Origin: Methanobacteriota archaeon
GTDB taxonomy: Archaea > Thermoplasmatota > Poseidoniia > Poseidoniales > Thalassarchaeaceae
Assembly (NCBI GenBank): GCA_002708695.1
Contig: PAOZ01000019.1
Location: 3,065-67,064 of the forward strand
DNA: 64,000 bases
Reading direction: 5' to 3'
Made by a program: the position numbers and the translations under genes. The notes under the pieces are model-generated. The model searched no databases. It was not told where the DNA came from and saw only the letters and a program-made list of their open reading frames with translations. Below are positions 583 through 16,734 of the stretch, one piece after another (position 1 is the stretch's first letter; each line of letters begins with the position of its first letter).

Positions 583-3500
583 TTAATCGAAGAAATCGTC
601 TAAATCATCGCCTTGACCATCAGAGGAACGATCCCCTACTTTCTCAAGTAAGAACTTCAAACGCCGTCGGATTTTTCGATTTCGATTTATTACCATTGGA
701 ACAGCAATAAGATTGATTGCAATAATGACAATAGCAACTAAAGAAGACGTTTGGAAATTCTGATCAGAGATGTCTTCAAGGAAACTATTCATCCAATCGT
801 TCTCATGATTTCGTTCAGGAGTAACTACATCGGGAATCAAATGAGGATTAGTTTCCCAAAACTGATCAGTAATCAATATTGATGCAGTGTTATCATTACG
901 AACTATAAAATCAGAATTACCGACTGAATCTTCAGGAATTAAGATGTAATAATATGTCTGCCCGATAGAAAGGCCGTCTTCTCCTGATGCCTGAACTTCG
1001 GTATACGATTCAGAAGTCAATGGCTCCCCCCATAATCCAGTCAAAATAGGTTCAATAAATTGAACTGATTGGGGTAAATTCTGTGTACGATACAAGGACC
1101 AAGTAACATTTTCTTCGTCAGGCAATCCATCACCGTCTTCATCAGGAATCTCGGGATAAATCCAAGTTACAGTGACAGAATGGGAATCTTTCTCATTTCC
1201 TGGAGATATATCATAATCATAAGAAAGAGTTACTCGAACATCTTGCATCTCATAATCAGGCGGATGAGCATCGCCACACTGAAGATCAGGATTGCCTACA
1301 TCTTTGAATCCTGTAACATTACCATGAGTATAATCAACAAGTCCTTGATGGTCAATAGCTGCAAGGATGTAACTTGCACAAATCCCCTCTTCTAGAGGAA
1401 CTGGATCTTTCCATTCAGTTTGATTTCCAGGTAAATCAACTACAAAGTTCTGTGTAACAGTTGATTCAAAATCATCGAGATTTTCGTACGGCCATCTAAA
1501 TGGGAACTCGGCCCTCTTGTAAACTCTCCATCCTCCAAAATAAGGGTCATCAATTGGCCCTTCAGAATCCCACATTAGAGTTAATTCTCCTCCTGCAGAT
1601 TTCTCTGTTCGTAGATTTAATGGAGTGACATTTACAGGAGCCATGTCTCCAACCAACATAATTGAACCACTAGATACGTCATTAAGACGAAGATGGAACG
1701 AATTATTAGACTCAAAGGCTTCAAACAAATCGTCTGAATCTAGAGGAGCCAAAACACCATTTGAACCATTGATAACATGCATTGCAACTACAGATGCAGG
1801 ACTAACACTGCTAGGAATTAGTTGACTAATATTGCCCCAAAAATCAATGTAATCAACATTCAAATCTTCGCCCGCAGTTGGATACAATCTAAAATCAAAT
1901 GAACGCAAAGGTGTCTTTCCGATGTTTACAGCTTGAGCATGTACTACTGTTTCGGGAAATGAAACATCAAGAACTTCGAATTCCATCTGTTCTACGGAAA
2001 CTGCCTCTCCAGAGGTAACTATAGGCATCTCTTGGAATTGGATTCTATTCAATACCTTGACGTACCTAGAAGATACTTCATCAAAGTCAGTTGGACTCAT
2101 CAAACTATGGCGAACGTGAAGAGTAATCTGATGATAACCCATTGGAAGAGTTGTACTAATCACTCTTCCATATCCTATTGTTTCAATGTAATCGATTTTC
2201 CAAGTATAATTCACAGGCAATGGAGAATCAGGTGCAAGGCCTGCTACAAACATGATTGATTCCCCAGTCTCAAATGTTGCATCGTCTAATGGAGGTACTG
2301 CAACATAAGCTCCTGTTGATGTTTGATTAATTACAATCTGAGTTTCGAAATAGTTGTTCGCAGGATCAAGATCAATTGATCCAGTCGAAGAAGTGGTAGT
2401 GGCATTTACTACAAATAAACCCAAATGATTCAAGGGGAAAATACAGGACACTAATTCCCCAGGATCAATTGTTTTAGTACATGAATCAGGATATCCTTCT
2501 ACCAAAGAATAGCCACTAGAAATATTGAATAATTCGATATTTAATGTAGTATTCCAAGGCATTTCTCCATCATTTCGAAGTTGAACTTGAAGGGCATCTT
2601 CGCCATAAGGGAATTTAACATAATTCTCAAAACCGATAGGAACCACTACTTCATCGCCCCTAGCAGGAGATATTCCTACTACTACAATATCTACATCATC
2701 GCTGACTTCAACTCTTACAGTTTCACCAATATTATTCCACGGATTAGGGTCTTCTGACGATTGCACATAGAATTCAACGTCATAAATCCCCTCGGAAGGG
2801 AATTGGAGATCAGGAGGAGACAGTACAAGAGAAGTCGAAGAACCAGAGACTGAAACTACAGAAGAAGATTCTGAAATTAGAAGGTGTGGAAGAACTAATT
2901 CAGCGCGAACACAGTGGAGGCCCTCTTCCATCCCAACAAAATCCATTTGGATTGAGACATCACTACCGTTAGATTTCCAATCATAAGAACCAGAATGGGA
3001 CTGATTTACTATTGATCCTGAGACAATAGACCACCTCAAAGAATAAGTTTCTTCATTTGATAGAGAAGTTGCATTGAATGTAGCATTAATTACATCATTT
3101 AGGGCATATGCCTCAACAAGAAGATATGGAGGAACCGTATCTGCTGGGGGAACAGGATTTTCAAAAAAACCAGCACCTACATACATACAGAATTGAGAAC
3201 TACCCATTGGAACATCCACTTGGTTCATCGACCAACCAACTGTAACTTCATCTTCTGCTGGCCAACCTATCGTGGTAACGGATACCGAAGTAGGGTAGTC
3301 TATACCAGGATTGAGGACATTGTTGGGGTCTAAATCATTTGAATTATAGATAATATCTTGAAAGAATTCATCCATATAGAATTTAACTGCTAAGCGGTCA
3401 TCAACAGGACGAATATCTTCTGATGAAAATCTAAACACAACTGTATAGGTCTGATTGGTGTATTCTATAGCATAAAAAGCATCAACAAAGGAAATTGTTG

Positions 3501-3855
3501 CTATTTCTTGAGGATCTAATGTTGGCACGGTAGTTTGACGTGAAAACAAAACGGATGGGCATGTAGCTGTAGATACATGGTCGCCTAAACAGATTTCAGC
3601 AACGATTGTGCGCCCTCCAATTGGAGTACTTGCATTACTTTGCACCTTTACTTCTAAGAAAATTGGGTCCCAAACACTGTAATGTGCTTCACTAATAGGG
3701 TCAATTACATCTGTAATCATGAAATCCTGAATGTTCCTTGAACTAGTTGCCTCAGTAGCAGGCAATAGTGGTAATGAAGACATCAAAAATAAGGCCAAAA
3801 CAAGGGGTACAGAGCGAATTATTCTAGAAGATGAACCAGCCGCTGGTCCCGCCAT
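583..3855 (-). CDS. large secreted surface protein (1090 aa). Sec-type signal peptide, very many N-X-S/T sequons, C-terminal TM anchor with basic/acidic cytoplasmic tail. Putative surface glycoprotein/adhesin.
   Basis: N-terminus MAGPAAGSSSRIIRSVPLVLALFLMSSLPLLPATEA is signal-peptide-like. C-terminus LVAIVIIAINLIAVPMVI followed by NRNRKIRRRLK...DDLDDFFD. Dozens of NxS/T motifs. Stop codon abuts the tRNA-Ser 3' end. Confidence 0.6.
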   Translation of the reverse strand: MAGPAAGSSSRIIRSVPLVLALFLMSSLPLLPATEATSSRNIQDFMITDVIDPISEAHYSVWDPIFLEVKVQSNASTPIGGRTIVAEICLGDHVSTATCPSVLFSRQTTVPTLDPQEIATISFVDAFYAIEYTNQTYTVVFRFSSEDIRPVDDRLAVKFYMDEFFQDIIYNSNDLDPNNVLNPGIDYPTSVSVTTIGWPAEDEVTVGWSMNQVDVPMGSSQFCMYVGAGFFENPVPPADTVPPYLLVEAYALNDVINATFNATSLSNEETYSLRWSIVSGSIVNQSHSGSYDWKSNGSDVSIQMDFVGMEEGLHCVRAELVLPHLLISESSSVVSVSGSSTSLVLSPPDLQFPSEGIYDVEFYVQSSEDPNPWNNIGETVRVEVSDDVDIVVVGISPARGDEVVVPIGFENYVKFPYGEDALQVQLRNDGEMPWNTTLNIELFNISSGYSLVEGYPDSCTKTIDPGELVSCIFPLNHLGLFVVNATTTSSTGSIDLDPANNYFETQIVINQTSTGAYVAVPPLDDATFETGESIMFVAGLAPDSPLPVNYTWKIDYIETIGYGRVISTTLPMGYHQITLHVRHSLMSPTDFDEVSSRYVKVLNRIQFQEMPIVTSGEAVSVEQMEFEVLDVSFPETVVHAQAVNIGKTPLRSFDFRLYPTAGEDLNVDYIDFWGNISQLIPSSVSPASVVAMHVINGSNGVLAPLDSDDLFEAFESNNSFHLRLNDVSSGSIMLVGDMAPVNVTPLNLRTEKSAGGELTLMWDSEGPIDDPYFGGWRVYKRAEFPFRWPYENLDDFESTVTQNFVVDLPGNQTEWKDPVPLEEGICASYILAAIDHQGLVDYTHGNVTGFKDVGNPDLQCGDAHPPDYEMQDVRVTLSYDYDISPGNEKDSHSVTVTWIYPEIPDEDGDGLPDEENVTWSLYRTQNLPQSVQFIEPILTGLWGEPLTSESYTEVQASGEDGLSIGQTYYYILIPEDSVGNSDFIVRNDNTASILITDQFWETNPHLIPDVVTPERNHENDWMNSFLEDISDQNFQTSSLVAIVIIAINLIAVPMVINRNRKIRRRLKFLLEKVGDRSSDGQGDDLDDFFD

Positions 3856-3991: not shown

Positions 3992-5029
3992 ATGCGGAGA
4001 GACTTTCAGTCAGATGAGGGGGGCCTCACCGCAGTGATTGAATTCCTTTCAGCATTCGTTCTTTTCCTAGTTATTGTCTCTGCTTTCCTCAGTCTTAGCC
4101 GTCTTAGTTTAGGTCCAAATGACCCTATGATAGATCGTTTAGATGAACACGCATCCGACGGTATAATGCGATTAACTTCAAGCCAAGGCTGGATGACACC
4201 ATATATTGATGAAAAAAGAGATGAAAATAATGGCACAGAAAATTGGCACTACGCAAATGCTAGCCAATTATTACATTCTGATGTCTTACCTGGAATAGGA
4301 AATTCAAATGGACAATTAGACCCAGAACGAATTTCTGCATTAAGTAATATTACAGAAGAACAACTGAAAAATGGTTTGGGTTTCCCGAATTTTGCTTCAA
4401 TAAACTTGTCAATAACTATACTTAACAGTCCGAATTTAGAACGTAATGGAATGACTTTATTTCTAGATGGAACTCCTCGAAAAGCAGCACAAAATTCTGC
4501 AGCAGCATTTCGCATCTTACCCATGGGGAATGAAACAATAGAAGTCAAATTAGAAGTTCATGATGCTGGGATGGTACCGGCCACAATGAAAATTACTGAA
4601 TTTGTCCCGAATCCAGAGATTGGAAAACCGGAATGGGTAGAGATACAAAACGACGGCGGGTTCGCTGTAGATTTGAACGGGTGGGGGATTTCCCGAAATG
4701 GTTTCCTTACCTTAGTTGGACAAGAAGCATTGAGAGGAGGAGGAATATTGATCTTATCTGGAGACATTGAAGAAATGGATACAGGAAACGCTAGCGTGGG
4801 CATTGATCTCGGACACACTGGAGTACTGGGAAGAGGAATGATGGACGGGCTGCACAATAATGCAGACAATCTCAAATTAACATACAATGAACCGGGTTTT
4901 TCTTTCACTCAAGAAGTAAATGTTGTCTCGTATGATTCTGATTGGGGGTTCCAAACAGGGTATAGTGCAAAATTGGATGAAAACGGATCTTGGCAAGTTT
5001 CTCAAATTACTACACCTGGCAACGTCTAA
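3992..5029 (+). CDS. pilin-like protein with class III (prepilin-type) signal peptide and C-terminal lamin-tail domain (LTD)
   Basis: N-terminus MRRDFQSDEGG|LTAVIEFLSAFVLFLVIV has basic n-region, Gly at -1 and E at +6, as in Flp/type IV prepilins. C-terminal segment EFVPNPEIGKPEWVEIQNDGGFAVDLNGWGIS matches the LTD consensus (EV..NP.....EWIEL.N.G...VDLSGW.L). Confidence 0.55.
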   Translation: MRRDFQSDEGGLTAVIEFLSAFVLFLVIVSAFLSLSRLSLGPNDPMIDRLDEHASDGIMRLTSSQGWMTPYIDEKRDENNGTENWHYANASQLLHSDVLPGIGNSNGQLDPERISALSNITEEQLKNGLGFPNFASINLSITILNSPNLERNGMTLFLDGTPRKAAQNSAAAFRILPMGNETIEVKLEVHDAGMVPATMKITEFVPNPEIGKPEWVEIQNDGGFAVDLNGWGISRNGFLTLVGQEALRGGGILILSGDIEEMDTGNASVGIDLGHTGVLGRGMMDGLHNNADNLKLTYNEPGFSFTQEVNVVSYDSDWGFQTGYSAKLDENGSWQVSQITTPGNV

Positions 5030-5066
5030 CCAACTTCTTGGCGTGGACTTATGAACAGAGTGTTGT

Positions 5067-5843
5067 GTGTTCGGTCCGGTCGCCATGCTGGGCAACGCAT
5101 CATATGAGCGTGATAGGTGCGTAACAGGTATACGGGGCCTCGATGAAATCCTGAGAGGAGGGATTCCTTACGGGTCCGCTACTCTTGTCGCCGGAACATG
5201 TGGTTCTGGAAAGACTACTTTGGGAATGGAGTTTCTAATGAATGGCGCACTTGCAGGAGAAGCGTGTGCTCATTTCTCAGCTACTGAGCCTTCAGTAAAA
5301 TTGCTTGAAAATATTAGACAATACAGTTTCTTCGATATGACTACCGTAGATCGAGGATTGATCAATGTGTTTGATATGGATGTTCTTTTCTCTTGGTTGG
5401 GTTTAGATAAAAGTACATTCAATCTAGATGATATTGATGCAATGGTCAAAGCGATTACCGATATTGTAAACACTATTGGAGTCACTAGACTTGTTATCGA
5501 TTCGGTAACTTCTCTTTGTTACAAAGTCCCAAATGAGCAACTTATCAGAGATTTTCTTTTCAAGTTAGGTAAATCACTCTCTACTTTAGGTTGCACTACA
5601 CTATTGATTGCTGAAATTACATCCGTAGGAGGTAGTTCCCACCGTTCAGCATTTGGTGTTGAAGAAGCAATTGCAGATGGAATCATTGTACTTGGAGACG
5701 TTGAACGAATGGGTCATCTTCTAAGATACTTACAAGTTGTCAAGATGCGTGGTACAGACCATAGTAGAGCAAAATATGCCTTGGAACTAACTCGAAGTGG
5801 AGTGATGCTAACTCCAATGCTAAAGTGGGGTGTTAGTCAATGA
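5067..5843 (+). CDS. KaiC/RecA-superfamily ATPase, single domain, intact Walker A (FlaH/ArlH-like or KaiC-like)
   Basis: GIRGLDEILRGGIPYGSATLVAGTCGSGKTTLGMEFLMNG is KaiC-type P-loop architecture. Walker-B-like TRLVIDSVTSL. GTG start at 5067 or ATG at 5085. Confidence 0.75.
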   Translation: MFGPVAMLGNASYERDRCVTGIRGLDEILRGGIPYGSATLVAGTCGSGKTTLGMEFLMNGALAGEACAHFSATEPSVKLLENIRQYSFFDMTTVDRGLINVFDMDVLFSWLGLDKSTFNLDDIDAMVKAITDIVNTIGVTRLVIDSVTSLCYKVPNEQLIRDFLFKLGKSLSTLGCTTLLIAEITSVGGSSHRSAFGVEEAIADGIIVLGDVERMGHLLRYLQVVKMRGTDHSRAKYALELTRSGVMLTPMLKWGVSQ

Positions 5844-6424
5844 TTGAATTTGATTTAGGAATTGCTGAACAATTAACTCAAGTTACCACCACCTCTAGTG
5901 TCCAAGTTAGAGTTGGAACCAGTAATTCTGATTTGGTAATTGCATCAATTATTCAACCATTAATGCAAAATTTTGGAATGGGAGGTGTATACATAACGGC
6001 CTCTCAAACTGCACCGAACGTTATCGAAATGATGAATACAATTGGAATTGATGTCTCTCCAATTCATTTCATTGATTGCGTTTCTTCTGGCATCCTAGGT
6101 GGAACTCAAAACCCATATCCAAATATTGGCTATATCGATAGCCCAATCATGCTTGAATCAATGATGTTACGTACATTACATCATCTAGAAAACTCTCAAG
6201 TTCAGCAAAACTTTGTCATCTTAGATTCTGTAAATGCACTTTCAATATATAATGAACAAAGAATTTTAGCAGAATATCTCCATACATTCATCAACACTTG
6301 CAAAAATAGACAAGTTCTCAGTCTAATTGTTAACGTTCCTGATCAAACACCAGCAGGAGTTCTTTCCAATCTTGACTTGTATTGTAGTGATCTCATTGAT
6401 AGAGGACAAGTAGTTATTTCTTGA
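5840..6424 (+). CDS. KaiC/RecA-like domain protein lacking a P-loop (pseudo-ATPase)
   Basis: ATGA overlap with the upstream gene (translational coupling). Retains Walker-B-like FVILDSVNAL and the KaiC-like C-terminal layout, but has no GxxxxGK[ST]. Confidence 0.5.
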   Translation: MIEFDLGIAEQLTQVTTTSSVQVRVGTSNSDLVIASIIQPLMQNFGMGGVYITASQTAPNVIEMMNTIGIDVSPIHFIDCVSSGILGGTQNPYPNIGYIDSPIMLESMMLRTLHHLENSQVQQNFVILDSVNALSIYNEQRILAEYLHTFINTCKNRQVLSLIVNVPDQTPAGVLSNLDLYCSDLIDRGQVVIS

Positions 6425-6433
6425 GGGATTTGA

Positions 6434-7249
6434 ATGACAATAAATTTTGATTCCGAAGATGAAGACTTCTATGGAGAAATGGGGTCAATCGGTTCAGTTA
6501 AATTCGATAGAATCCTTACAGGGACCCCACATAATACGGGAAGCATCCCAAGGGGCTTTACCCTTCTAGGATACGGAAATACTGGCGCTGGAATTGATTT
6601 GTTCGCAAAACAGTTCGTTTCAGTTGCTGAAGACCCAGAAAATACAATTTTGATTTCAACATCAGAAACAACATCAGAAATCCTATCGGTTTACAAAAAA
6701 TATGACTGGCCCACCGAGATACGTGTTCGAACTATGGGCGAGGAATACAATAAAGAAGTCCTAACTAGAGAACTTGAAGCTTCAAGATACAGAATCGAAG
6801 GATTTACTCTTAGCGACATACAAAAGTTGGCTCAAACACGTTTCGTTGATCAACAATCTCACGATTTTCTAACTGATTTAACAACTCAAGTCACATCTCT
6901 AGGACCTTACTTCCGAGCAGCCATAGATAGTTTGGATTTCTTTTACAGTAGATTTGATCCTGGAAGAGTCACATCTATGCTAAGAATTATGCAAGCACAT
7001 GCTCAAAGAAATAGAGGTCTTCTACTATTAACAGTAAGTGGTGATGCGGTAGAGAAGAGTACCGAACGTGAATCAATGGCAATTTGCGACATGGTAATGG
7101 AATTTGAAGTAGGGATGAGAGGTTCAGATTTCGATACTAGAATGGTAATTCGAAGATTTAGAAACCATCCAGAGAATCTAGCATTTATCACATTCAGAGT
7201 CACACCCGAAGAAGCCATAACTCCAGAGACGGTCGAAAGAGTAGCATAA
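6434..7249 (+). CDS. KaiC/RecA-like domain protein with degenerate P-loop (GYGNTGAGID, no Lys)
   Basis: GSIPRGFTLLGYGNTGAGIDLFAKQFVSVAE parallels the KaiC GGxPxGsxxLxxGxxGxGKT segment with Lys lost. GAGGG SD-like motif 6 nt upstream of the ATG. Confidence 0.5.
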   Translation: MTINFDSEDEDFYGEMGSIGSVKFDRILTGTPHNTGSIPRGFTLLGYGNTGAGIDLFAKQFVSVAEDPENTILISTSETTSEILSVYKKYDWPTEIRVRTMGEEYNKEVLTRELEASRYRIEGFTLSDIQKLAQTRFVDQQSHDFLTDLTTQVTSLGPYFRAAIDSLDFFYSRFDPGRVTSMLRIMQAHAQRNRGLLLLTVSGDAVEKSTERESMAICDMVMEFEVGMRGSDFDTRMVIRRFRNHPENLAFITFRVTPEEAITPETVERVA

Positions 7250-7280
7250 GTCGCCCAACCTTCAAGATAGTCAACCTCTA

Positions 7281-7784
7281 GTGCGTACCATGAAGGCCCC
7301 GAAGGAGTCTCAAGATGCAGTGAGCCCAGTTATTGCTACTGTTCTTCTTTTGGCAATTACCGTTCTTCTAACAAGTGGTATCTACATCATGGTTCAAGAT
7401 GCAGTTCAAGCCCCCGATAAAGGGACACCATATGGACAATTAACATCTCAATCCTTGGATAATGGATTCCAAGTAGTAAGAGTCTCTGATTTATCCAATG
7501 AATTGATGATAAATACAATCAAATTCCAAATTATATCCAATAATGGCACTATTATCGAAGGTCTAGCAAATGATGCATCCGTATACGGTGCTATCGGTTC
7601 AGATATTACCTTTCAAGACAGAGATGCTGGACTTACCCTAAATCGAGGCGACTATTTCATTATCAACGCAACAGCCATTGGTTCAGATGAAGGTGATTGG
7701 ACATTCAGATTAATCTTCATGGGAACCGGAACGCGAGGAACTGCGGATCTTGGCCAAGTAATTCTTCCAGCGATTAATCAATAA
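7281..7784 (+). CDS. archaeal type IV pilin (class III signal peptide, Pilin_N-type N-terminus)
   Basis: M(R)TMKAPKESQDA|VSPVIATVLLLAITVLLTSGIYIMV. The VSPVIATVLL(L/V)AITV segment is the hallmark archaeal pilin/archaellin N-terminal motif. Small Gly/Thr/Asn-rich mature domain. GTG at 7281 or ATG at 7290. Confidence 0.7.
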   Translation: MRTMKAPKESQDAVSPVIATVLLLAITVLLTSGIYIMVQDAVQAPDKGTPYGQLTSQSLDNGFQVVRVSDLSNELMINTIKFQIISNNGTIIEGLANDASVYGAIGSDITFQDRDAGLTLNRGDYFIINATAIGSDEGDWTFRLIFMGTGTRGTADLGQVILPAINQ

Positions 7785-7822: not shown

Positions 7823-9064
7823 ATGGTCGAAGAGAGATTGGCAGGTCCTATCCAGACAATTCACCCCTCCAATTTCGAAGGAGTAAACTGGTTTTTATCG
7901 CCTTCAAAGTCACATATGATACGATGGTTAGTATTAGCATCCATGTCCAAAGATAAGACTAGGATATCTTTTGATGGGAAACCCGGAGAAGATATCCATT
8001 CTATGGCTAACTGTTTAGAAAAAATGGGAATCGTCATTAAAAGAGAAAAAGAATTCTGGGAAATTCAAGGGAATGGCCCACATGGATTTTCAATACCAAA
8101 TGAAGTTCTTGACTGTAGAAATTCAGGGACGACAATGAGATTTCTGATTCCACAATTAGCATGTTTCTCCTCTTCAGCAGTCATAGACGGAGATTGGACA
8201 TTAAGGAACAGACACCTAGAGTCATCTACCAATTCAATCGAACAATTGGGGGCTAAGATTGAATCTTCAGAAGATAATCTTGGTGCACCCTATACAATAG
8301 TTGGACCATTAAATTCGGGAATCGTAAAGTTAGATACAAGTAAATCTAGTCAATCACTTTCTGCACTTGTGTTACTTGGTCCTAGAATGTCTGGACCAAT
8401 AAAAATAGAAACTATTGGGAGAAGTGTATCGAATCGACATGCACAGTTAACTTTTGAAATCGCACAAAAAACCGGTTCGAAAACAATTTGGAACGGAGAA
8501 AGGGAGATTATAATTCAACCTTGGATTCCAATATGTCCAAAGAATGTTAAAATTCCATCAGACCTGAGCCTTGCTGCATTTGGAATTGTCGCCGCCACGG
8601 CCCATAATACCGATTTAACAATACTAAATCCACCTAATCCAGAAGATGGAATTGGGGCCGAGATTATTTTCGACATTATGGAGAAAAAACCGAAAGAACC
8701 AATGGAATTAGATTTACTAAATTGTAATGATTTGCTCCCTGCTTTATCTGCTTTCTTAGCTTTAGGACCAGGGGGAAGAATTCGGAATGCTTCACATGCC
8801 AGATTCAAGGAGTCTAATCGAATTTCAAAAACAATAGAAATGCTTTCTCATTTTGGACTTGTAGTAGAACAATGTGAAGATGGCATTCAAACTGAAGGTG
8901 GCCAAACCCCAAAAAAGCCCGAAAATGTCATCGACGTATACGGAGATCATAGGTTATTCATGACTGCAGCATGTATTGCGAGTAAAACAGGTGGAAAAAT
9001 TACTGATAAAGGAGTATGGAATATTACTGACCCATTATTTGCAGAACAAATTGGTTTCAATTAA
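7823..9064 (+). CDS. aroA: 3-phosphoshikimate 1-carboxyvinyltransferase (EPSP synthase)
   Basis: PSKSHMIRWLVLA near the N-terminus and NSGTTMRFLIP mid-protein are AroA-type signatures. Length 413 aa. Confidence 0.7.
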   Translation: MVEERLAGPIQTIHPSNFEGVNWFLSPSKSHMIRWLVLASMSKDKTRISFDGKPGEDIHSMANCLEKMGIVIKREKEFWEIQGNGPHGFSIPNEVLDCRNSGTTMRFLIPQLACFSSSAVIDGDWTLRNRHLESSTNSIEQLGAKIESSEDNLGAPYTIVGPLNSGIVKLDTSKSSQSLSALVLLGPRMSGPIKIETIGRSVSNRHAQLTFEIAQKTGSKTIWNGEREIIIQPWIPICPKNVKIPSDLSLAAFGIVAATAHNTDLTILNPPNPEDGIGAEIIFDIMEKKPKEPMELDLLNCNDLLPALSAFLALGPGGRIRNASHARFKESNRISKTIEMLSHFGLVVEQCEDGIQTEGGQTPKKPENVIDVYGDHRLFMTAACIASKTGGKITDKGVWNITDPLFAEQIGFN

Positions 9065-10649
9065 TTCTAGATTTAACCATAACATGATCATCTTCTCCGG
9101 AAGGTGGATCAATCCAATCAGGATCACCTGGTAAAACTAAACTACGACCTATTGAATCAAGTATATTCGCTAATTCAACTTGAGATTGAGACAGTTCTTT
9201 CCAAGGAATCGAGCCATCCCTTAATCGGAACCAACGACGCAACGTTTGCATTGCACGAACGCTACGTTGCCATAATCTTAGGTGAAGTCTAGCACCTACA
9301 CTCCATAATGGCATTATAATAAATGCAAGAAATACCCATGGAACTGAAGTAATTGTTGGTTTGAGGAACCCGAGTGTTCCTTGACCTAAAATCGTCCAAA
9401 CTGGACTAGAGGACCCTGCCAAAAGCCATGCAACAGGAAATGAAACAATGACCCACCAAATTGGAAGAAGCATGAAGGCTACAGCAATTTTCTTTGTACC
9501 TAATGCATAAGGCTCATTTTCTGCAGATTTTGCAGCAATTGGCCCAGCAATTCGGTATGGAGGGTAAGATCCTATGAGTGCACTCCAAGTAATCAAACCA
9601 AGCATCCAAATCCAACACCATACAAATTGAATCAATGCAGAAGCCATGGAAAACAAACCAGGACGTTTGTTTCGATCATACAATTCGTATTCAGATAACC
9701 CATATGATTGCATTACTTTCGAATGATTTTCAACTTTGGAACGTAATTCATTGGCCTTATTGGGTTGAGTTTGAAGCATATATAGCCATGCTGCACGCAT
9801 TCTACGAGCGCCTAAAATTGCTTCTTCAAAAGTTGCTCTCTTTTGCCTTCCTTCTGCTCTATTTCGATGGACTGAAACTAATCCTCTAGTTCTCCAAAGC
9901 AATTTTCGATCTTCCCAAGAATCCAAACCATGACTAGTTCTTTGTAACTCTCCACCTAAATCTTCAGTAACATATTGTACCCAAGCACGATCATTAGCTT
10001 CCTCTTTACCAAATTCAGAAATCATTTGTTCAGAAGGTACAGGAGCGTCTTCTTCTCCTGGAAGAGGAGGTAAAGACATCGGAGAATGAACTTCAACCAA
10101 TGCTCTCTCTCTAAATCGATTAGGATCAGAATAATGTAAACCTACAGGAACAATAACTGGCTCAGGGACTCCTTGTTCTCGGGCTCTTCTAATTGCAAGT
10201 AACAACATTCTTGCAGGGCCGGTTTTCACTCTTTCTGGTTGGCTAGAAAGATGTGAAACTCCTTCAGGAAAAATAACACATCTTCCTTGATCAACCAATA
10301 TATCTGCAACCGTATCAATAACGGCTTGATTACCCTTTTTTCTATCCCCAGATATCTGTTCTTTATCTATAGAACGATATATTGGTCTTGCACCAGCCGC
10401 TTTCATTACATTTCCCAATATTGGAATTTTGAATAGAGTATGTTTGGCGATGAATGTAATTTGACCAGGTAATGTAGATATCATTATCAGAGGATCAATT
10501 AGAGAACCAGGGTGCCATGCTGCAAACAACACACCCCCTTCTTCTGGAATATTATCTATCTCAATAGCCCCATGTTCTCTAAACCAAGTTTCACTAATCT
10601 CTTTCGCTATCCACCTAACTGCTCGATATGACGCAGAAGGAGTAGCCAT
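9057..10649 (-). CDS. lysophospholipid (1-acyl-glycerol-3-phosphate) acyltransferase family protein, PlsC-like, with C-terminal multi-TM domain
   Basis: HX4D acyltransferase motif (FAAWHPGSLIDP). FPEG block (VIFPEGVSH). C-terminal half has several hydrophobic helices. Start placed at the internal ATG 10649 (MATPSASY...) to avoid overlap with mutL; the ORF-track start at 10784 lies inside mutL. Confidence 0.65.
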   Translation of the reverse strand: MATPSASYRAVRWIAKEISETWFREHGAIEIDNIPEEGGVLFAAWHPGSLIDPLIMISTLPGQITFIAKHTLFKIPILGNVMKAAGARPIYRSIDKEQISGDRKKGNQAVIDTVADILVDQGRCVIFPEGVSHLSSQPERVKTGPARMLLLAIRRAREQGVPEPVIVPVGLHYSDPNRFRERALVEVHSPMSLPPLPGEEDAPVPSEQMISEFGKEEANDRAWVQYVTEDLGGELQRTSHGLDSWEDRKLLWRTRGLVSVHRNRAEGRQKRATFEEAILGARRMRAAWLYMLQTQPNKANELRSKVENHSKVMQSYGLSEYELYDRNKRPGLFSMASALIQFVWCWIWMLGLITWSALIGSYPPYRIAGPIAAKSAENEPYALGTKKIAVAFMLLPIWWVIVSFPVAWLLAGSSSPVWTILGQGTLGFLKPTITSVPWVFLAFIIMPLWSVGARLHLRLWQRSVRAMQTLRRWFRLRDGSIPWKELSQSQVELANILDSIGRSLVLPGDPDWIDPPSGEDDHVMVKSRIN

Positions 10650-10702
10650 CGTCCCTCGGAGTAAGCCAATACAAATAGCACAATCGACAAAAAAAACGAA
10701 AT

Positions 10703-12643
10703 TTATCCTAAACGTCCAAAGTGGTCGTCTAATTGAGATATATCCAATTTCAATACAGTAGGCCGTCCGTGCACACAAGCCCAAGGATTCTCGATGGTAG
10801 ACATATCTGCCAACAATCTTCTCATTTCAGCTAATTCAAGACGTTGGTTTGCCTTTACAGCACCTCTACAAGATTTCATGAATGCTATTTCATCTTGAAG
10901 TTGATCTACGCTATCTAGAATCATACTATCTGATTCATTAATGTCGGAAAGTAAATCTTTGATAAATCCAATCAACCTATCATCACCAAGTAATAATCGG
11001 GGTACTGAAATTATATCCTCGACAGATTCCTCTCCAAAATTGAATCCTAAATTATTCAATAATTCCCTATTATTTTCAATTATTCCCCTTTGTCTTGCCG
11101 ATAATTCGATTTTCAATGGATGAATCAATGACTGAGGTTCCCAAGAAGACATATCATGACGTAATCTTTCATATCTGATTCGCTCATGTAGAGCATGTTG
11201 ATCTACAACAAACAATGATTCTCCACCTTGGGCCAAAATGTAGGTATCAGCAAACTGAGAAAGTGCCTCCATAGCAGGAACATCTGTCACTGGGCCTCTA
11301 AATTCTGGTTCAGAAATAGGCGATACGGGGTCTCCAGTACTCGAGTAACGATGTAATTCTCTTTCTGCTACAGAGAGTGCGGGGGAAATTGGCATCGAAT
11401 CAAGTCCTGGCAATGTTTCCTGTACTGATGGTGAATGAGAAATAGGCCTAGCACGAGGAGATTCAGAAATGGTTCTTGGAGAAACAGGTTGATTGAATCT
11501 AGTTTGAACTGATGTAGCTGCTTCAATCCAAGCAGGATTCTTATTTTGGGTCGGTGGGGGGGTTGGAAGATTATTCAAATCACTCACAGACCCTAGCGGA
11601 AAGGAATCTGTAGCAGGAGCACCAGTAGGAATAGAAAGTAAAGTATGAGCAATACTACGCTCAAGACGTTCTAAAACTCTCCAAGAATTCTTTAATCGAA
11701 CTTCCCGTTTTGTGGGATGGACATTGACGTCAACTTCATCATTTGGCATATCTAAGAATAAAACACAAACCGGATGTCGACCAACCATTAATCGAGTTTG
11801 GTATCCCTTTCGAATAGATTGTAAAAATGGCGTAGAAGCTACTGTTCGATTATTTACAAAAATATGGATGTCATCAGAACGGCCTCGATCAACTGATGGA
11901 GGAGAAATCCAACCTCGCCATCGTTCTTCACCTGGTGCAGATTCATCTGATTCAGGACCAACAAGCGGAATTAAGCGCTCAGAAGAACCTCCAAGAACAT
12001 CATAAAGACGAGATTCAGGAGTAGTTGGACCTGGTGAAGAAAGCACAATTCTATCATCTACCTTGATTGAAAAACCAACTTCTGGATGAGCAAGAGCATA
12101 AGCCATGACTACATCGACTATAGCTGCAGTTTCAGTAGAAGGACGCCTTTGAAAAGCCATTCTCGCAGGAACAGAGGAAAAAATATCCTTTACTTCTATC
12201 CTAGTTCCAATTGATTTACCTACAGGACCAATTGGAAAGACCTCTCCGTGATTTACTTCTATGAATGAACCCTCTTGTGTTTCTAACTTCGATTCTATTC
12301 TCAAGTGACTTACTGAGCCAATAGCTGCCAAGGCTTCACCTCTGAAACCAAGGGTCCCAATATTCGAAAGATCTTCCGATGTTCTCAATTTACTAGTAGC
12401 ATGACGGTTTACTGCTAAAATTAATTCAGATGCAGGAATACCGTGACCATCATCCTCCACTGAAAGACGAGAAAATCCACCATCTTCAACTACAATACCA
12501 ATGTTTGTTGAACCCGCATCTAAACTATTCTCAACTAATTCCTTGACAACCTGAGCGGGACGTTCGACTACTTCACCTGCTGCAATTCTTCCGATTGTTG
12601 CATCATCCAATTGTTCTATTGGAGACCGAGTCAAAATCATCAC
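10703..12643 (-). CDS. mutL: DNA mismatch repair protein MutL
   Basis: N-terminal GHKL ATPase motifs IAAGEVVERPAQVVKELVENSLDAG. C-terminal dimerisation domain. 646 aa. Confidence 0.93.
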   Translation of the reverse strand: MMILTRSPIEQLDDATIGRIAAGEVVERPAQVVKELVENSLDAGSTNIGIVVEDGGFSRLSVEDDGHGIPASELILAVNRHATSKLRTSEDLSNIGTLGFRGEALAAIGSVSHLRIESKLETQEGSFIEVNHGEVFPIGPVGKSIGTRIEVKDIFSSVPARMAFQRRPSTETAAIVDVVMAYALAHPEVGFSIKVDDRIVLSSPGPTTPESRLYDVLGGSSERLIPLVGPESDESAPGEERWRGWISPPSVDRGRSDDIHIFVNNRTVASTPFLQSIRKGYQTRLMVGRHPVCVLFLDMPNDEVDVNVHPTKREVRLKNSWRVLERLERSIAHTLLSIPTGAPATDSFPLGSVSDLNNLPTPPPTQNKNPAWIEAATSVQTRFNQPVSPRTISESPRARPISHSPSVQETLPGLDSMPISPALSVAERELHRYSSTGDPVSPISEPEFRGPVTDVPAMEALSQFADTYILAQGGESLFVVDQHALHERIRYERLRHDMSSWEPQSLIHPLKIELSARQRGIIENNRELLNNLGFNFGEESVEDIISVPRLLLGDDRLIGFIKDLLSDINESDSMILDSVDQLQDEIAFMKSCRGAVKANQRLELAEMRRLLADMSTIENPWACVHGRPTVLKLDISQLDDHFGRLG

Positions 12644-15321
12644 TCCTCAACCCAATCTGGCATTTTCTCTTTCCCTTGTTCTTCGGCTTTCAAAGCATAT
12701 AATGCATCAAGTGCTTCACGGGGAGTCATCATGTCTGGATCTAACGCAGAAAGACGTTCCAACAAATCTCTTTGTCTATCTGATAAGAGGGGGGCGGAAG
12801 GAATAGAGGGTTGAATTTCAGAATTAATTTCAGAATTTACCATCCATCCAAAAAGAGAAGATTGTCCATTAGGTCTGGAAAGAGGAATTCCCTTTCCTCC
12901 GGCTCTAGCCCCTTCCGCTTGTTGTTCTAAGAAAATCAACAAGTCTCTGGCTCTTTCGATTACTGAAGTGGGTAAACCCGCTAGAGAAGCAACTTGGACA
13001 CCATAAGAATCATCACATGGACCCTCAGAAACAGTATGTAAGAAAGTCAATTCACGATTAATTTCCGCTACTTGTACATGGATATTGAATAAACTTTCAA
13101 TTTCTCCTTCTAAACCTACTAATTGATGATAATGGGTTGCAAATAATGACCTTGCGCCAATCCTTTTAGCCAAATCTTCTGTTACGGACCAAGCAATTGC
13201 AAGTCCATCAAATGTAGAGGTACCCCTACCCACTTCATCAAGCAATACTAGACTTCTAGAAGTGGCTCGGCGAAGAATATGAGCGACTTCAATCATTTCC
13301 ACCATAAACGTAGATCTCCCTCTACGAAGGTCGTCGTGTGCTCCAACTCTAGTGAAAACGCGATCAATTAAACCAATTCTAGCCTTTGAAGCAGGAACAA
13401 AAGAACCTGCTTGGGCAAGAATAGATATCAATGCAGTTTGACGTAAATAAGTAGACTTTCCCCCCATATTTGGTCCAGTTAATAATAGAAATTTTCTATT
13501 CTTAGCAAACTGAATATCATTTGGAACAAAACCCTCTATTTCTTCTAAAACTGGATGTCTGCCGGCAATGATATCTAATCTATCATCTTCAAAAATTTCT
13601 GGTCTAACCCAAGACCTTCGACGAGATTGTTCGGCCAGTGAACAGAGAACATCTATGGCAGCAACATTTCTTGCAATTTGAGATAAAACAGAACTTTGGA
13701 CTTTCACTCGCTCCCTCAATTCCAAAAATAACCGATATTCCAAATCGTTAGCTCTTCCACCTGCATTCAGAATTATGTCTTCCCATTCTGCTAATTCATC
13801 GGTAGTGTATCTCTCCGCATTAGTCAATGTTTGACGACGGCGATATTCCTTTGGAACCTTATCGGTATGAACTTTAGTGACTTCAACAAAATAACCAAAT
13901 TGTCGATTAAATTTAACTTTGAGAGAAGGGATATTCAACCGTTCTCTCTCTCTTTCTTCAAATCCTTTTAGCCAATCTTTACCTTCACCCGAACGATTAC
14001 GAAGTTCATCCAATGATTCGTTAATTCCTATTCTGAAAATTCCTCCATCTCGAATTGTATGAGGCGGTTCTTCAACCAATTCATGTTCAATTATTGTTCT
14101 TATCGATTCCAACTTTGTCAGGCCATTTCCTAAAGAAATCAATAATCCATCAGAGGATTCATTCACTAATCCCTGCAATCTAGGCATCCGGCTAAGAGCA
14201 TCAGAAATCGCAATCAAATCTCTAGCATTCGCTCTATCATAAGCTAAACGAGTAGAAAGACGTTCGAGGTCTCTCATTGACTGGAGACATGATCTGATTT
14301 CGGCTAGTCGTTTAGATGCACGAACCAAAGAAGAAATCGCTGAATGGCGCTCAGCAATTCTATTCTTATCCATTAAAGGCCTAAGCAACCATTCCTTCAA
14401 CATTCTTCGCCCCATCCATGTCCTAGTCTGATCAATGGCATGAAGAAGTGAACCAACTCTTTCTCCAAGCAAAGTTTGTGTCAATTCTAAATTTTTCAGG
14501 GTAGTTTGATCAAGAGACATATAATCAGAATCATCCTCAACTGAAATCTCTCTAAGAGGAACAGAATCTATCAAATGAAGAGAAGAAATGTAAGACGCTC
14601 CAAGACCACATGCTTCCATCCCATGTGGTCGAGAATCAAGGTCTATCGATCCTAAATCTGCAATATCAAGATGATGACGAACAACTTCCATCCTACGTTT
14701 TGGTGAGCATTCATGAGTAGAAAGTGAAAGGCCGTCAACATCGATAATCACTGAACGCATGGATTCATTGATTGCGTCCTTGCTAGTCGTAACCAATTCT
14801 GCAGGAGACCATCGAAGCATCTCGTCCCTTAGTCTGTCAAAACGAGATGGGCCAGTAAATTGCTGAGCCCATGCTCTTCCAGTAGAAGTATCTAGTAATG
14901 CCAGACCCAATGAATCTGATTTTAGGACAACGGATGCAAGCAAAGCCGAACCATCTTCGCCAATTAACGAATCTTCGTACAATGAACCAGGAGTATATAC
15001 TCTAGAAACTACTCTCCTGAGAATCTTCTCTCCCGGAAGGGGGTCTGATGCTTGCTCACAAACAGTAACCTTGTGACCTGCTTGAACCATTTTTCGCAAG
15101 TAATCTTCGACACTATGCCATGGAACGCCAGCCATAGGTACTGGATTTTCAGCATTCTTATCTCTACTTGTTAATGTAATTCCTAAAACTTCAGCACCTA
15201 AAACTGCATCTTCGTAAAACATCTCATAGAAATCCCCCATTCTGAAGAAAAGCACAGTATCCGGATGTTCTTGCTTAATCGCCCTATATTGATCAAGCAT
15301 CCCGGGTCCCTTGCTGGCCAT
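12640..15321 (-). CDS. mutS: DNA mismatch repair protein MutS (MutS1 type)
   Basis: N-terminal mismatch-binding motif GDFYEMF. ABC ATPase GPNMGGKSTYLRQ...STFMVEM. 4-nt overlap with mutL. The ORF track extends to 15387; MASKGPGMLDQYRAIK at 15321 is the more likely start. Confidence 0.93.
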   Translation of the reverse strand: MASKGPGMLDQYRAIKQEHPDTVLFFRMGDFYEMFYEDAVLGAEVLGITLTSRDKNAENPVPMAGVPWHSVEDYLRKMVQAGHKVTVCEQASDPLPGEKILRRVVSRVYTPGSLYEDSLIGEDGSALLASVVLKSDSLGLALLDTSTGRAWAQQFTGPSRFDRLRDEMLRWSPAELVTTSKDAINESMRSVIIDVDGLSLSTHECSPKRRMEVVRHHLDIADLGSIDLDSRPHGMEACGLGASYISSLHLIDSVPLREISVEDDSDYMSLDQTTLKNLELTQTLLGERVGSLLHAIDQTRTWMGRRMLKEWLLRPLMDKNRIAERHSAISSLVRASKRLAEIRSCLQSMRDLERLSTRLAYDRANARDLIAISDALSRMPRLQGLVNESSDGLLISLGNGLTKLESIRTIIEHELVEEPPHTIRDGGIFRIGINESLDELRNRSGEGKDWLKGFEERERERLNIPSLKVKFNRQFGYFVEVTKVHTDKVPKEYRRRQTLTNAERYTTDELAEWEDIILNAGGRANDLEYRLFLELRERVKVQSSVLSQIARNVAAIDVLCSLAEQSRRRSWVRPEIFEDDRLDIIAGRHPVLEEIEGFVPNDIQFAKNRKFLLLTGPNMGGKSTYLRQTALISILAQAGSFVPASKARIGLIDRVFTRVGAHDDLRRGRSTFMVEMIEVAHILRRATSRSLVLLDEVGRGTSTFDGLAIAWSVTEDLAKRIGARSLFATHYHQLVGLEGEIESLFNIHVQVAEINRELTFLHTVSEGPCDDSYGVQVASLAGLPTSVIERARDLLIFLEQQAEGARAGGKGIPLSRPNGQSSLFGWMVNSEINSEIQPSIPSAPLLSDRQRDLLERLSALDPDMMTPREALDALYALKAEEQGKEKMPDWVEE

Positions 15322-15425
15322 TCTTGCACCTCCAATTATCGCGTGACCGTCTGCGCACCTCAGCGAGGTATGATGAACATAACGCAAAGAAAATTACAGA
15401 TTTCAGATTAAACAAAGAGGTTGGA

Positions 15426-16616
15426 TTACCATGCATCAAAACCCATAACTTGGAAATTTCGAGCCAAAACCAAACAAGCGCCTGCTGCAATTGCTAAGAA
15501 AATACCATCAAAAAGAAGTGACGGGCGAACAATTGGATTCGTCAATGAAGAAGTATCGATTATCAATAGGCTATCGCCCTCGTGGATAACATGAATGGTG
15601 CCTCCATCGGAAACAGCAGATTGAGCAGAGAACCCCGCCGGAGATTCGACACTCAGACTTTGGACTGACCCATCTGCACCTAAAACAATAACATTCGATT
15701 CTTCTCCAAATACCCATAATCTTCCTTCAGAATCAACAGTTGAAGCTAAGCCTCCACCTATCTCAATATCTGTCGATACCGATAAGTCGTCGCTGATTAG
15801 TGTTAATTGATCAGGAGAAACAGCAAATCCAAGAAGATTTGAATCTTCAGAAATGTGAACCGAATGATATGCTGCTCCAAAACTATGCTGAACTAAAGTT
15901 GCCTGGGGCGCAAAACCAATAGATGCAGATGCGACAAAAAGGACTTCTCCAACATCAGAAGGTGAGCCAGGATTAGAAAACACTGAAGAAATACCCGAAA
16001 CTATAGCTGAATTTCCTGAATCATCAACATCAAAACCAGTTAGAGTTAGAGTATTCTCTTCAATATCTGCTGCAAAACTCAATGAATTCTGAATTCTAGA
16101 ATCAAAAGTACGTAATTCCACATTTTGTCCTCTTTCTAAAAGAATCCATCCGGACGAACCATCTGCTGCATGTAAATCAATTACTCTATCTTCCGATTGC
16201 AATATTGGAAGAGGAGTTTGATCTTGTCCAACTATACGTACTAAAAGTCCGGATTCTCCACCAACCAACCACTCAGAACCTGAAGAAGATACAACTGTAG
16301 GTTCTGAAGACAATGAAATTTCCTCAGCACTGGAACCTTGAATTCTAAAAAGACGATTTATGCCCGAATCATCGATTACTGCCAATGCAGAACCATCTTC
16401 TGCGAATGCCATTGACAAAATTCTACTATCATCTGGTAATGTAGGATGATTTTCAGTTCCAGAAGGGATTACATCTGCAACATGAATCAAGGCGGCTCCC
16501 AATATCATTATCATTACAAATCCTGCCAATGAAAGCCATTGACCCTCCCCCTCTTCTGAGAGTAATGCAGAGAAAGGAACTTGCCTAGAACCAGTGGCCA
16601 TACAATAGTGTGCCAC
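15426..16616 (-). CDS. membrane-anchored hypothetical protein with repeated beta-strand-rich (propeller-like) segments
   Basis: N-terminal TM helix LSLAGFVMIMILGAALIHVA followed by Ser/Gly/Asp-rich repeats. No recognisable catalytic motif. Confidence 0.4.
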   Translation of the reverse strand: MAHYCMATGSRQVPFSALLSEEGEGQWLSLAGFVMIMILGAALIHVADVIPSGTENHPTLPDDSRILSMAFAEDGSALAVIDDSGINRLFRIQGSSAEEISLSSEPTVVSSSGSEWLVGGESGLLVRIVGQDQTPLPILQSEDRVIDLHAADGSSGWILLERGQNVELRTFDSRIQNSLSFAADIEENTLTLTGFDVDDSGNSAIVSGISSVFSNPGSPSDVGEVLFVASASIGFAPQATLVQHSFGAAYHSVHISEDSNLLGFAVSPDQLTLISDDLSVSTDIEIGGGLASTVDSEGRLWVFGEESNVIVLGADGSVQSLSVESPAGFSAQSAVSDGGTIHVIHEGDSLLIIDTSSLTNPIVRPSLLFDGIFLAIAAGACLVLARNFQVMGFDAW

Positions 16617-16699: not shown

Positions 16700-16734
16700 G
16701 AGACTGTAAGTCGCCGAGACCCGAGAGGATTCCT

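Follow-up and report, generated by a model that had tools for sequence, protein, structure and literature searches.

We identified in the 64-kb window (the whole stretch of DNA analysed), from a marine Group II archaeon, a conserved operon in which one intact and two inactivated KaiC-like genes are followed by the gene of an archaeal type IV pilin, and this operon most probably governs the making of pili and is not a filament machine of a new kind. We read the conserved core, formed by the KaiC-like genes g2, g3 and g4 and the pilin gene g5, as a cytoplasmic KaiC-type switch, and with moderate confidence we take it to be a heteromeric KaiC/iKaiC (active and inactivated KaiC) switch tied to the biogenesis of the pilin or of the pilus. 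The five co-directional genes proposed by the first-pass annotation are all present as open reading frames (ORFs) on the plus strand, with a gene here called 'big' diverging from the first of them:

583-3855, minus strand: 'big', ORF divergent from g1
3992-5029, plus strand: g1, ORF
5067-5843, plus strand: g2, ORF whose true start may be the ATG at 5085
5840-6424, plus strand: g3, ORF
6434-7249, plus strand: g4, ORF
7281-7784, plus strand: g5, ORF with its likely start at the ATG at 7290

The tight coupling noted earlier within the trio g2-g3-g4 was also found, with an ATGA overlap at the g2/g3 junction and a gap of 9 nt between g3 and g4, while in the L088 locus the t2/t3 and t3/t4 junctions both overlap. 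Such overlaps and short gaps are typical of complex subunits and were therefore counted in favour of a heteromeric switch. The spacing is 37 nt from g1 to g2 and 31 nt from g4 to g5; with the later start codons, ATG 5085 for g2 and ATG 7290 for g5, these gaps would be 55 and 40 nt.

The middle three genes had been described as KaiC paralogs, the first with an intact Walker A and the second without a P-loop; our analysis agrees, and it places the second and third among inactivated forms. All three encode single-domain proteins (194-271 aa) with no membrane segments. The KaiC-like protein g2 matched PF06745 in Pfam with an E value of 1.8e-52 and 178 bits (cutoff 26.6), and the motif alignment revealed the Walker A motif GTCGSGKT, the Walker B Asp (IDS), the Lys/Arg finger KMRG and one catalytic Glu (TE), just one of the two found in KaiC. 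The score above cutoff and the intact motifs place g2 in the catalytically active KaiC family, and it is predicted to be a catalytically competent ATPase. Against PDB, g2 matched KaiC CI with an E value of 1e-42 and FlaH with 6e-4. Its identity is 78-81% across Poseidoniales, a level typical of housekeeping proteins that speaks against the switch reading, and 53% to the L088 ortholog. The other two are iKaiC proteins, having a KaiC/RecA fold that has lost the P-loop residues. In g3 (194 aa) both the P-loop and the catalytic Glu are absent and the C-terminus stops short of the Arg-finger hairpin; g3-like domains are also found fused to TPR, DUF835 and TM modules. In g4 (271 aa; PF06745 at 31.2 bits; KaiC match of the g4 profile in PDB at E 8e-22) the Walker A motif is degenerate, GNTGAGID without the Lys/Thr, as it is throughout the g4 family alignment (consensus G-x-x-G-[SA]-G-x-[ED]), whereas the K/R-x-R finger survives as RRFRN, as does the Walker B Asp. 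Relatives were found in 393 species genomes. To judge from these motifs, g3 and g4 cannot bind or hydrolyse ATP.

On sequence grounds g5 belongs to the archaeal type IV pilins, as had been claimed, and is of the PilA type, since it scored above cutoff for both PF07790 (Pilin_N, 28.1 bits, cutoff 25.2) and TIGR02537 (31.6 bits, cutoff 20). The leader reads ...KESQDA/VSPVIATVLLLAITVLL..., and the class III signal MKAPKESQDA/VSPVIATVLLLAITVLLTSGIYIM is accompanied by a TM segment at 10-28. The N-terminus can be aligned to those of haloarchaeal pilins whose filament structures are solved (9myg, 8gi2). No gene for a prepilin peptidase (Peptidase_A24) was detected among the window ORFs scanned. The FlaI/TadA-like ATPase placed earlier at about 49 kb was confirmed as a T2SSE gene 48.8 kb from g5. 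The accompanying statement that no ATPase or platform gene lies nearby is right for the operon itself, but two T2SSF genes beside this ATPase had been overlooked:

56624-57862, minus strand: T2SSE ATPase (PF00437, E 1e-40)
57872-58612, minus strand: T2SSF platform protein (PF00482; E 2e-5 and 2e-12 for the two T2SSF genes)
58619-59191, minus strand: T2SSF platform protein (the other gene of this pair)

These genes, unlinked to the operon, provide within the window an assembly ATPase and platform of the type IV pilus kind, and we infer that they assemble g5 and possibly g1. No pilin gene lies beside them; in archaea it is usual for major pilins to be encoded on their own (PMC4858521). Across 171 loci, the 6-10 kb around the trio contained neither T2SSE nor T2SSF, whereas ArlH always lies in the arl operon, an observation against the switch reading.

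Upstream of the trio, g1 encodes a protein of 345 aa that opens with a short acidic leader. Its TM helix (GLTAVIEFLSAFVLFL...) is near-invariant and the most conserved region; beyond it lie an alpha/beta domain of PDC/Cache-like type (about residues 67-191) and a C-terminal lamin-tail (LTD) beta-sandwich (about 199-337), and almost nothing of the protein is cytoplasmic. Among 73 sequences, position -1 is G in 40 and A in 33, position -4 is D in 55 and position -3 is E in 50 or D in 20, and positions +3 to +8 are invariant in the homologs as AV[IV]EFL. The leader D(-4)E(-3)x[GA](-1) is common to g1 and the bona fide PilA pilins of other Thermoplasmata. We regard g1 as a membrane-anchored, candidate class III signal (pilin-like) protein that may be cleaved at this site. 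Of its earlier description as a pilin-like protein with a lamin tail, the class-III-like N-terminus and the lamin tail stand; the pilin identity is weakened, as no Pilin_N, TadE or other pilin model matched in Pfam and NCBIfam at E <= 0.1 and the middle domain resembles PDC/Cache sensor domains and pilins equally. Within the window, class-III-like N-termini occur only in g1 and g5, which flank the trio. The divergent gene encodes a type I surface protein of 1090 aa with an N-terminal signal peptide, an ectodomain of about 1000 aa bearing 18 N-X-S/T sequons and a C-terminal TM helix (TM segments at 12-30 and 1033-1051). Its short cytoplasmic tail ends in ...DDLDDFFD, and the C-terminal motif [DE][DE]F[EDQ]DFF is kept across the order. 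'big' had no Pfam match, and one homolog matched CARDB weakly. Both proteins are confined to Poseidoniales and form, in our best reading, lineage-specific surface partners of the conserved core.

The neighbourhood comparison supports a conserved link between the KaiC genes and the pilin. In Poseidoniales, the block of 'big' (divergent) and g1-g2-g3-g4 was found in all loci with enough sequence: g2-g3-g4 are colinear in 79 of 83 loci, g1 adjoins the trio in 74/74 loci with enough sequence and 'big' adjoins g1 in 69/83. In distant high-GC Thermoplasmata, which lack g1 and 'big' and whose g3 is only ~27% identical, the operon KaiC-iKaiC-(iKaiC)-Pilin_N recurs in every context inspected. The pilin follows the KaiC duo or trio in at least 59 of 67 metagenome loci, which do not amount to 59 independent events as the soil loci are phylogenetically close, and it follows in 17/17 of the distant loci with a third paralog. 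Conservation across 79/83 Poseidoniales loci and distant Thermoplasmata puts the arrangement far beyond chance, and the conserved order rules out a chance juxtaposition of KaiC genes and pilin. The five genes do not form an invariant module, because g5 adjoins the trio in only 17/83 Poseidoniales loci and g1 and 'big' are Poseidoniales-only. With a g5-type gene downstream, a g1-type gene upstream, or both, the trio nevertheless always lies beside a protein with a class-III-like N-terminus.

The proposed switch may work as follows. g2 would bind and hydrolyse ATP, and the pseudo-ATPase paralogs g3 and g4 would most likely join it in a heteromeric RecA-like ring, in which the Lys/Arg finger of g4 could complete the active site of g2 and g3 could be an adaptor or a purely structural part. 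Through its nucleotide or phosphorylation state, the complex would govern whether the PilA-type pilin is produced or assembled. It could dock on the TadA-like T2SSE/T2SSF machinery encoded 49 kb away, much as ArlH docks on ArlI, or it could have an effect on expression comparable to that of CirA in Haloferax. Poseidoniales would have gained two surface partners upstream, g1 with its pilin-like N-terminus and PDC-like and LTD ectodomains, and the giant putative glycoprotein 'big', which may offer a docking site in its conserved cytoplasmic ...DFF tail. The proposed switch has neither a DNA-binding domain nor a known output domain, a point against this reading.

A general KaiC signalling hub or housekeeping complex (stress, cell cycle, envelope), beside which the pilin merely persists through slow rearrangement of the neighbourhood, is possible but on balance unlikely. 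The trio is kept in most Poseidoniaceae without a neighbouring PilA pilin, which also tells against the switch reading, and a UbiE-type methyltransferase, otherwise unrelated, is conserved near the trio over the same evolutionary distance; synteny in the region is deep, so that inertia could account for some of the adjacency. The high conservation of g2 (~80%), the many g3-like iKaiC architectures unrelated to pili and the constant separation of the trio from T4P machinery point the same way. Against such a hub, the tight same-strand order KaiC-iKaiC-pilin is kept despite the divergence of g3 and otherwise differing flanks; the trio, once inverted in situ, still sits between g5 and g1; and the Poseidoniales operon opens with another protein with a pilin-like N-terminus.

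We consider it improbable that the locus is a Poseidoniales-centred transmembrane surface-sensing module, with g1 and 'big' as sensors or adhesins, the trio as transducer and the pilin as one output or incidental. The conserved TM helix of g1, the order-wide acidic-aromatic C-terminal motif of 'big' and the apparent co-transcription of g1 with the trio (gaps 37-90 nt) would fit this, and KaiC proteins have been proposed as signalling hubs (PMC5847659). Yet g1 and 'big' are missing from all non-Poseidoniales lineages with the duo or trio and a pilin and so cannot define the ancestral function, and g1 leaves almost nothing in the cytoplasm. The undescribed self-contained filament module suggested earlier, in which the KaiC trio would replace the PilB/FlaI ATPase and platform and assemble g1 and g5, is very doubtful. 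The trio is indeed flanked by the only two class-III-like N-termini of the window and its operon has no assembly ATPase, but the same window contains a canonical operon of one T2SSE and two T2SSF genes, two of the three paralogs probably lack the capacity for ATP binding and hydrolysis, and none has a membrane segment. We also know of no KaiC-family protein that extracts pilins. The claim was thus overstated, the more so as service of stand-alone pilin genes by distant machinery is the archaeal norm and KaiC/iKaiC association with T4P loci is already described (PMC4858521). A RadA-paralog-type (aRadC-like) DNA repair complex that lies by chance near mutL and mutS (at 10.7-15.4 kb) is scarcely credible: there are the RecA-superfamily fold and weak RadB/Rad51 matches, but KaiC scores far exceed those for RadA/RadB (178 bits vs under 25), mutLS adjacency is not kept in relatives and the operon contains membrane and pilin proteins.

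The switch reading was set against known systems. Circadian KaiC joins CI and CII domains in tandem (about 500 aa) and has KaiB (and KaiA) as partners; bona fide circadian KaiC was ruled out, as the proteins here are single-domain, the NCBIfam KaiC equivalog scored 138 bits against a cutoff of 408 and no KaiB-like gene occurs in the neighbourhood. PADLOC models for anti-phage defence systems gave only trivial P-loop-level matches. ArlH (FlaH) is the KaiC-like component of the archaellum motor and docks on ArlI. ArlH identity was rejected (NF052589 at 36 bits for g4 and 34.6 bits for g2, cutoff 215; no ArlI/ArlJ adjacent): g2 and g4 are not its orthologs, and ArlH is a single gene within the arlI/arlJ operon, whereas here three paralogs lie far from the ATPase. 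The described archaeal T4P loci (Aap, Ups, Epd, Haloferax PilB/C operons) do not fit either, since both in the window and in 171 related loci the 6-10 kb around the trio are free of T2SSE/T2SSF. To our knowledge, no Haloferax pilA genes are reported beside KaiC paralogs. g5 has the same conserved H-domain (AVSPVIxxxLxxAITVxL) as haloarchaeal PilA1-6-type pilins and like them is encoded apart from the assembly ATPase, but its C-terminal domain is unrelated in sequence (PMC4858521). An experimental precedent for KaiC-pilin regulation is the KaiC-like CirA of Haloferax volcanii, genetically linked to filament genes, which represses arl transcription and whose loss suppresses the motility defect caused by removal of the pilin H-domain (PMC10983859); CirA differs in being a single protein of the haloarchaeal archaellum cluster, without iKaiC partners and not co-transcribed with a pilin. 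Elp4/5/6 and RAD51 paralog complexes are heteromeric rings of active and inactive RecA folds, to which the putative ring here would be analogous in architecture only. KaiC-family and iKaiC ATPases are reportedly treated in Makarova et al. 2017, along with Makarova, Koonin & Albers 2016 (arCOG01171/01174/01175/03793). A strong association with T4P loci, as predicted regulators, is described for KaiC proteins of arCOG01171/01174/01175, 'inactivated' forms among them (Makarova 2016, PMC4858521), in a census from which Poseidoniales and uncultured Thermoplasmata were absent. The iKaiC concept is set out in PMC5847659, as are fusions of iKaiC domains with REC and further signalling domains. The first-pass annotation's view that the arrangement is unlike described loci holds for the pilin, which is not clustered with a PilB-type ATPase or PilC/TadC platform, and fails for the KaiC/iKaiC-T4P link, which is known (PMC4858521). 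Single-domain KaiC-like proteins, inactivated paralogs included, occur beside T4P components in both settings; those described adjoin FlaI/TadC assembly genes or the archaellum operon, whereas those here share an operon with a stand-alone PilA pilin gene and are never near T2SSE/T2SSF. What is distinctive is the fixed set of one active and one or two inactive paralogs, and likewise the addition of g1 and 'big' in Poseidoniales.

The window is chromosomal DNA of a Marine Group II archaeon, and its nearest loci are found in Thalassarchaeaceae/Poseidoniales MAGs, with 88-96% identity in the g4 protein. The cluster and the divergently oriented surface protein gene beside it are laid out as follows.

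583-3855, minus strand: big, a 1090-aa surface protein with signal peptide, large sequon-rich ectodomain, C-terminal TM helix and short cytoplasmic tail
3992-7784, plus strand: g1-g5, five co-directional ORFs (ORF calling)

The five same-direction ORFs lie exactly at the coordinates assigned to them in the first-pass annotation, and the tight, coupled spacing claimed there was also recovered. The g2/g3 junction is an ATGA overlap, g3 is followed by g4 after 9 nt, and the spacings from g4 to g5 (31-40 nt) and from g1 to g2 (37-55 nt) are ranges set by uncertain starts (g2 possibly ATG 5085, g5 possibly ATG 7290). The big gene adjoins a tRNA-Ser(GCT) gene at 496-582.

The trio g2-g3-g4 was characterized through its motifs and profiles. 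The g2 protein constitutes a complete KaiC-like ATPase of one domain (PF06745, E 2e-52; PDB KaiC CI, E 1e-42). Compared with an approximate S. elongatus KaiC reference sequence, it shows a GSGKT Walker A, an Asp in Walker B, a single catalytic Glu and a finger reading KMRG. The g4 protein belongs to the KaiC family (g4 profile against KaiC, E 8e-22); its Walker A reads G-x-x-G-[SA]-G-x-[ED], devoid of Lys/Thr, in all aligned members, and the K/R-x-R finger is retained. Profile-profile comparison of g3 with g4 yielded no significant match, so their relationship rests on the relation of each to KaiC. The trio thus comprises one active KaiC-like ATPase and two inactivated paralogs (iKaiC), in line with the intact Walker A of g2, missing P-loop of g3 and GYGNTGAGID of g4 originally pointed out. 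None of the three is an ArlH ortholog, as the ArlH model scored no higher than 36 bits (cutoff 215). A defence system was also rejected, PADLOC returning only trivial matches. The g3 profile matched 1557 representatives at E <= 1e-3, and in other organisms this P-loop-less (DUF7504-like) domain lies C-terminally in 780-1776-aa proteins that also contain TPR/SNAP-like repeats plus Ig-like (CARDB/NPCBM_assoc) domains, or occurs in fusions with DUF835 (another iKaiC) and with small multi-TM proteins (representative-library examples P0397, P0414, P0407, P0400, P0395, P0412 and P0421). Such fusions are consistent with an adaptor or signalling role.

Scanning a single genome for each species turned up g4 relatives in 393, and the best 80 of these together with 3 metagenome contigs gave the 83 loci analysed. 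The order g2-g3-g4 is colinear in 79 of them. The pilin-like gene g1 lies immediately upstream in 69 and immediately downstream on the opposite strand in 5, the remaining loci being truncated, and big was found in 69. Identity to the window falls from about 80% for g2 through 64% (g3), 57% (g4) and 40% (g1) to 26% for big. The PilA-type pilin gene g5 and aroA adjoin the trio in only 17/83 loci, namely those of the window's own clade and of one Poseidoniaceae subclade with an in-situ inversion of g2-g3-g4, flanked there by g5 and g1. In these inversion loci (L025, L027, L031, L032, L038 and L043) g5 is now divergent and g1 convergent, with aroA and big unmoved. Other Poseidoniaceae carry a UbiE-type methyltransferase directly after g4 (63 loci), followed by the V-ATPase operon. 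The same methyltransferase lies 43 kb from the trio in the window and about 2 kb past the pilin in soil Thermoplasmata (L087, L090, L091), a placement that reflects deep synteny with lineage-specific rearrangement. The synteny regions concerned are:

50976-51686, plus strand, window: methyltransferase/V-ATPase synteny
42190-50544, minus strand, window: methyltransferase/V-ATPase synteny
8859-16804, related locus L001: methyltransferase/V-ATPase synteny

As regards the surface proteins, g5 scored above the curated cutoffs of both Pilin_N and the archaellin/pilin N-terminal model, as expected of the archaeal type IV pilin it had been called, and its H-domain AVSPVIATVLLLAITVLL aligns with haloarchaeal PilA pilins of solved filaments. 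The g1 family (114 members) is exclusive to Poseidoniales. From the N-terminus, its AF2 model (pLDDT 86, pTM 0.76) consists of a TM helix, a further helix, an alpha/beta domain and a C-terminal beta-sandwich, the TM helix being the best-conserved segment with AV[IV]EFLSAF invariant. This helix is preceded by D(-4) E(-3) x [GA](-1), and bona fide PilA pilins of other Thermoplasmata have a matching leader, R-K-D-E-x-A followed by VSPVIAT. The class III signal proposed for g1 is therefore plausible, though putative, and g1 would be cleaved there; no pilin HMM matched g1. Within the 64-kb window only g1 and g5 have class-III-like N-termini. The big protein ends, after its TM anchor, in an acidic-aromatic motif [DE][DE]F[EDQ]DFF-COOH (window 583-700; L004-L083) that is kept order-wide despite about 26% overall identity and looks like a short linear docking motif.

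Conservation reaches beyond the order. Starting from the weakest relatives of g4 (38% identity) and from the g3-like family (926 matches), we reached contigs of high-GC Thermoplasmata sampled in soil, sediment and groundwater, where all inspected contexts comprise a KaiC (~257 aa), a P-loop-less iKaiC (~190 aa), optionally a degenerate iKaiC (246 aa) and then a Pilin_N protein (155-199 aa). The KaiC genes overlap in these operons and a second pilin often follows the first. Among 80 further metagenome loci, 67 extended far enough downstream, and a pilin was present in at least 59 of them, a lower bound since the regex/ORF finder overlooks some true Pilin_N genes (e.g. the Pfam-positive ones of L087 and L090), and in all 17 loci carrying the third paralog. 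Both g1 and big are absent from the inspected non-Poseidoniales operons; a DFF-tailed partner was sought in other lineages and not found, and the 1501-aa surface protein near the L088 operon has a zinc-ribbon/SHOCT-like tail, which marks big as specific to Poseidoniales. From this arrangement the ancestral core is KaiC/iKaiC plus a PilA pilin, to which Poseidoniales added g1 and big. The neighbourhood comparison that the first-pass annotation had called for thus showed linkage both within the order and, as a KaiC/iKaiC-pilin operon, in other Thermoplasmata. Three of the soil loci (L087, L090, L091; ~13.7-20 kb) encode downstream a ~2170-aa protein with an STT3 (AglB oligosaccharyltransferase) domain fused to many Ig-like/CarboxypepD_reg domains.

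The window search also located genes for pilus assembly.

56624-57862, minus strand: T2SSE ATPase, 412 aa
57872-59191, minus strand: two T2SSF platform genes (split, TadB/TadC-like)

With a 114-aa ORF they make up a compact pilus assembly operon (56624-59532, minus strand), which has no pilin gene beside it. Convergent to it is a 587-aa acidic protein with a weak SAP-domain match (54860-56623). Across 171 loci (1.87 Mb), the 6-10 kb around the trio contain no T2SSE or T2SSF gene, in agreement with the first-pass statement that no ATPase or platform gene is nearby; the window itself does encode a candidate machinery for g5. Stand-alone major pilin genes with distant ATPase/TadC modules are common in archaea (PMC4858521).

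Elsewhere in the window, a 683-aa STAND-type NTPase (weak nSTAND1/AAA_16 matches) is translationally coupled to a 343-aa protein without Pfam match (25936-29015, minus strand), and large ORFs at 15426-16616, 20695-22407 and 39613-42111 likewise lack Pfam matches. An Orc1/Cdc6 gene (22284-23465, plus strand) overlaps the end of an opposite-strand unannotated 570-aa ORF and may mark a replication origin region; the GC-skew profile has no clear switch at this locus.

Gene content, motifs, folds and the conservation of order and spacing are observed, and from them we infer a complex, a target of regulation, g1 cleavage and docking on the tail of big. The g2, g3 and g4 proteins would form a heteromeric RecA-like ring with g2 as its sole ATP-turnover site, g4 possibly donating a finger to that site and g3 acting as adaptor. 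The state of the ring would control production or assembly of the co-encoded pilin, either via the Tad-like motor (ArlH-like; ArlH modulates ArlI) or via expression (CirA-like), and the candidate surface partners or inputs in Poseidoniales are g1, a pilin-like protein with PDC and LTD parts, and the giant glycoprotein with its conserved tail. We put this prediction at roughly an even chance. A KaiC hub independent of pili and kept near the pilin by synteny is distinctly less probable. Phylum-wide, the KaiC genes always have one or more neighbours whose product has a class-III-like N-terminus. Guilt by association is tempered by the close relatedness of the soil loci to one another, by the methyltransferase, which is syntenic over equal evolutionary distance, and by the lack of T2SSE and T2SSF genes near the trio in the 171 loci. 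A Poseidoniales surface-sensing module to which the pilin is incidental sits poorly with the pilin-bearing operons outside the order, which have neither g1 nor big; we regard it as improbable. The self-contained filament machine first proposed is very improbable, with T2SSE and two T2SSF genes already in the window. A RadA-paralog repair complex, considered beside the bacterial-type mutL (10703-12643) and mutS (12640-15387; both minus strand, 4-nt overlap) just downstream of the cluster, is scarcely credible and was rejected as the main reading, since KaiC gives by far the higher scores and relatives do not keep mutLS beside the trio.

The uncultured Marine Group II archaea rank with the most abundant archaea in surface seawater, and Poseidoniales dominate the planktonic archaea there. 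A near-universal operon pairing a KaiC-type switch with pilin-like surface proteins offers concrete candidates for regulated adhesion, as in attachment to particles or phytoplankton. With the KaiC-iKaiC-pilin core also in Thermoplasmata of soil and sediment, the proposed role of KaiC/iKaiC as archaeal signalling hubs for type IV filaments can be tested by wide comparison, and the fixed set of one active with one or two inactive paralogs lends itself to the study of heteromeric KaiC-like rings. As a bolder extension of ring control, which we think unlikely, Poseidoniales might possess an envelope-spanning contact/adhesion sensing apparatus. Its surface components would be g1 and the giant glycoprotein. 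A hetero-hexameric g2/g3/g4 ring would read the DFF tail, the invariant helix of g1 or both (alternatively, the acidic prepilin leaders D-E-x-[GA]), and the ring would gate PilA pilus assembly by the distant Tad-like motor. If true, contact at the surface would be signalled to pilus biogenesis by a KaiC-based, archaeon-specific route, whose ancestral KaiC-iKaiC-pilin core would be conserved across Thermoplasmatota.

A strong association of archaeal T4P and archaellum loci with ATPases of the KaiC family, some of them in arCOGs annotated as inactivated, has been described, and a regulatory role was predicted for these proteins (Makarova, Koonin, Albers 2016; PMC4858521); the genome set of that survey contains no Poseidoniales and none of these uncultured Thermoplasmata. 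The iKaiC domains are further fused to REC and other signalling domains (PMC5847659). When Haloferax loses CirA, a KaiC-like protein, arl genes are derepressed and the motility defect that results from pilin H-domain removal is suppressed (PMC10983859). In the library searched, no paper joined Poseidoniales, pili and KaiC. The observation of the first-pass annotation is confirmed and its interpretation partly supported: the cluster is not the new filament machine that had been proposed, and is a conserved variant, to all appearance undescribed, of the known association of KaiC/iKaiC with type IV pili.
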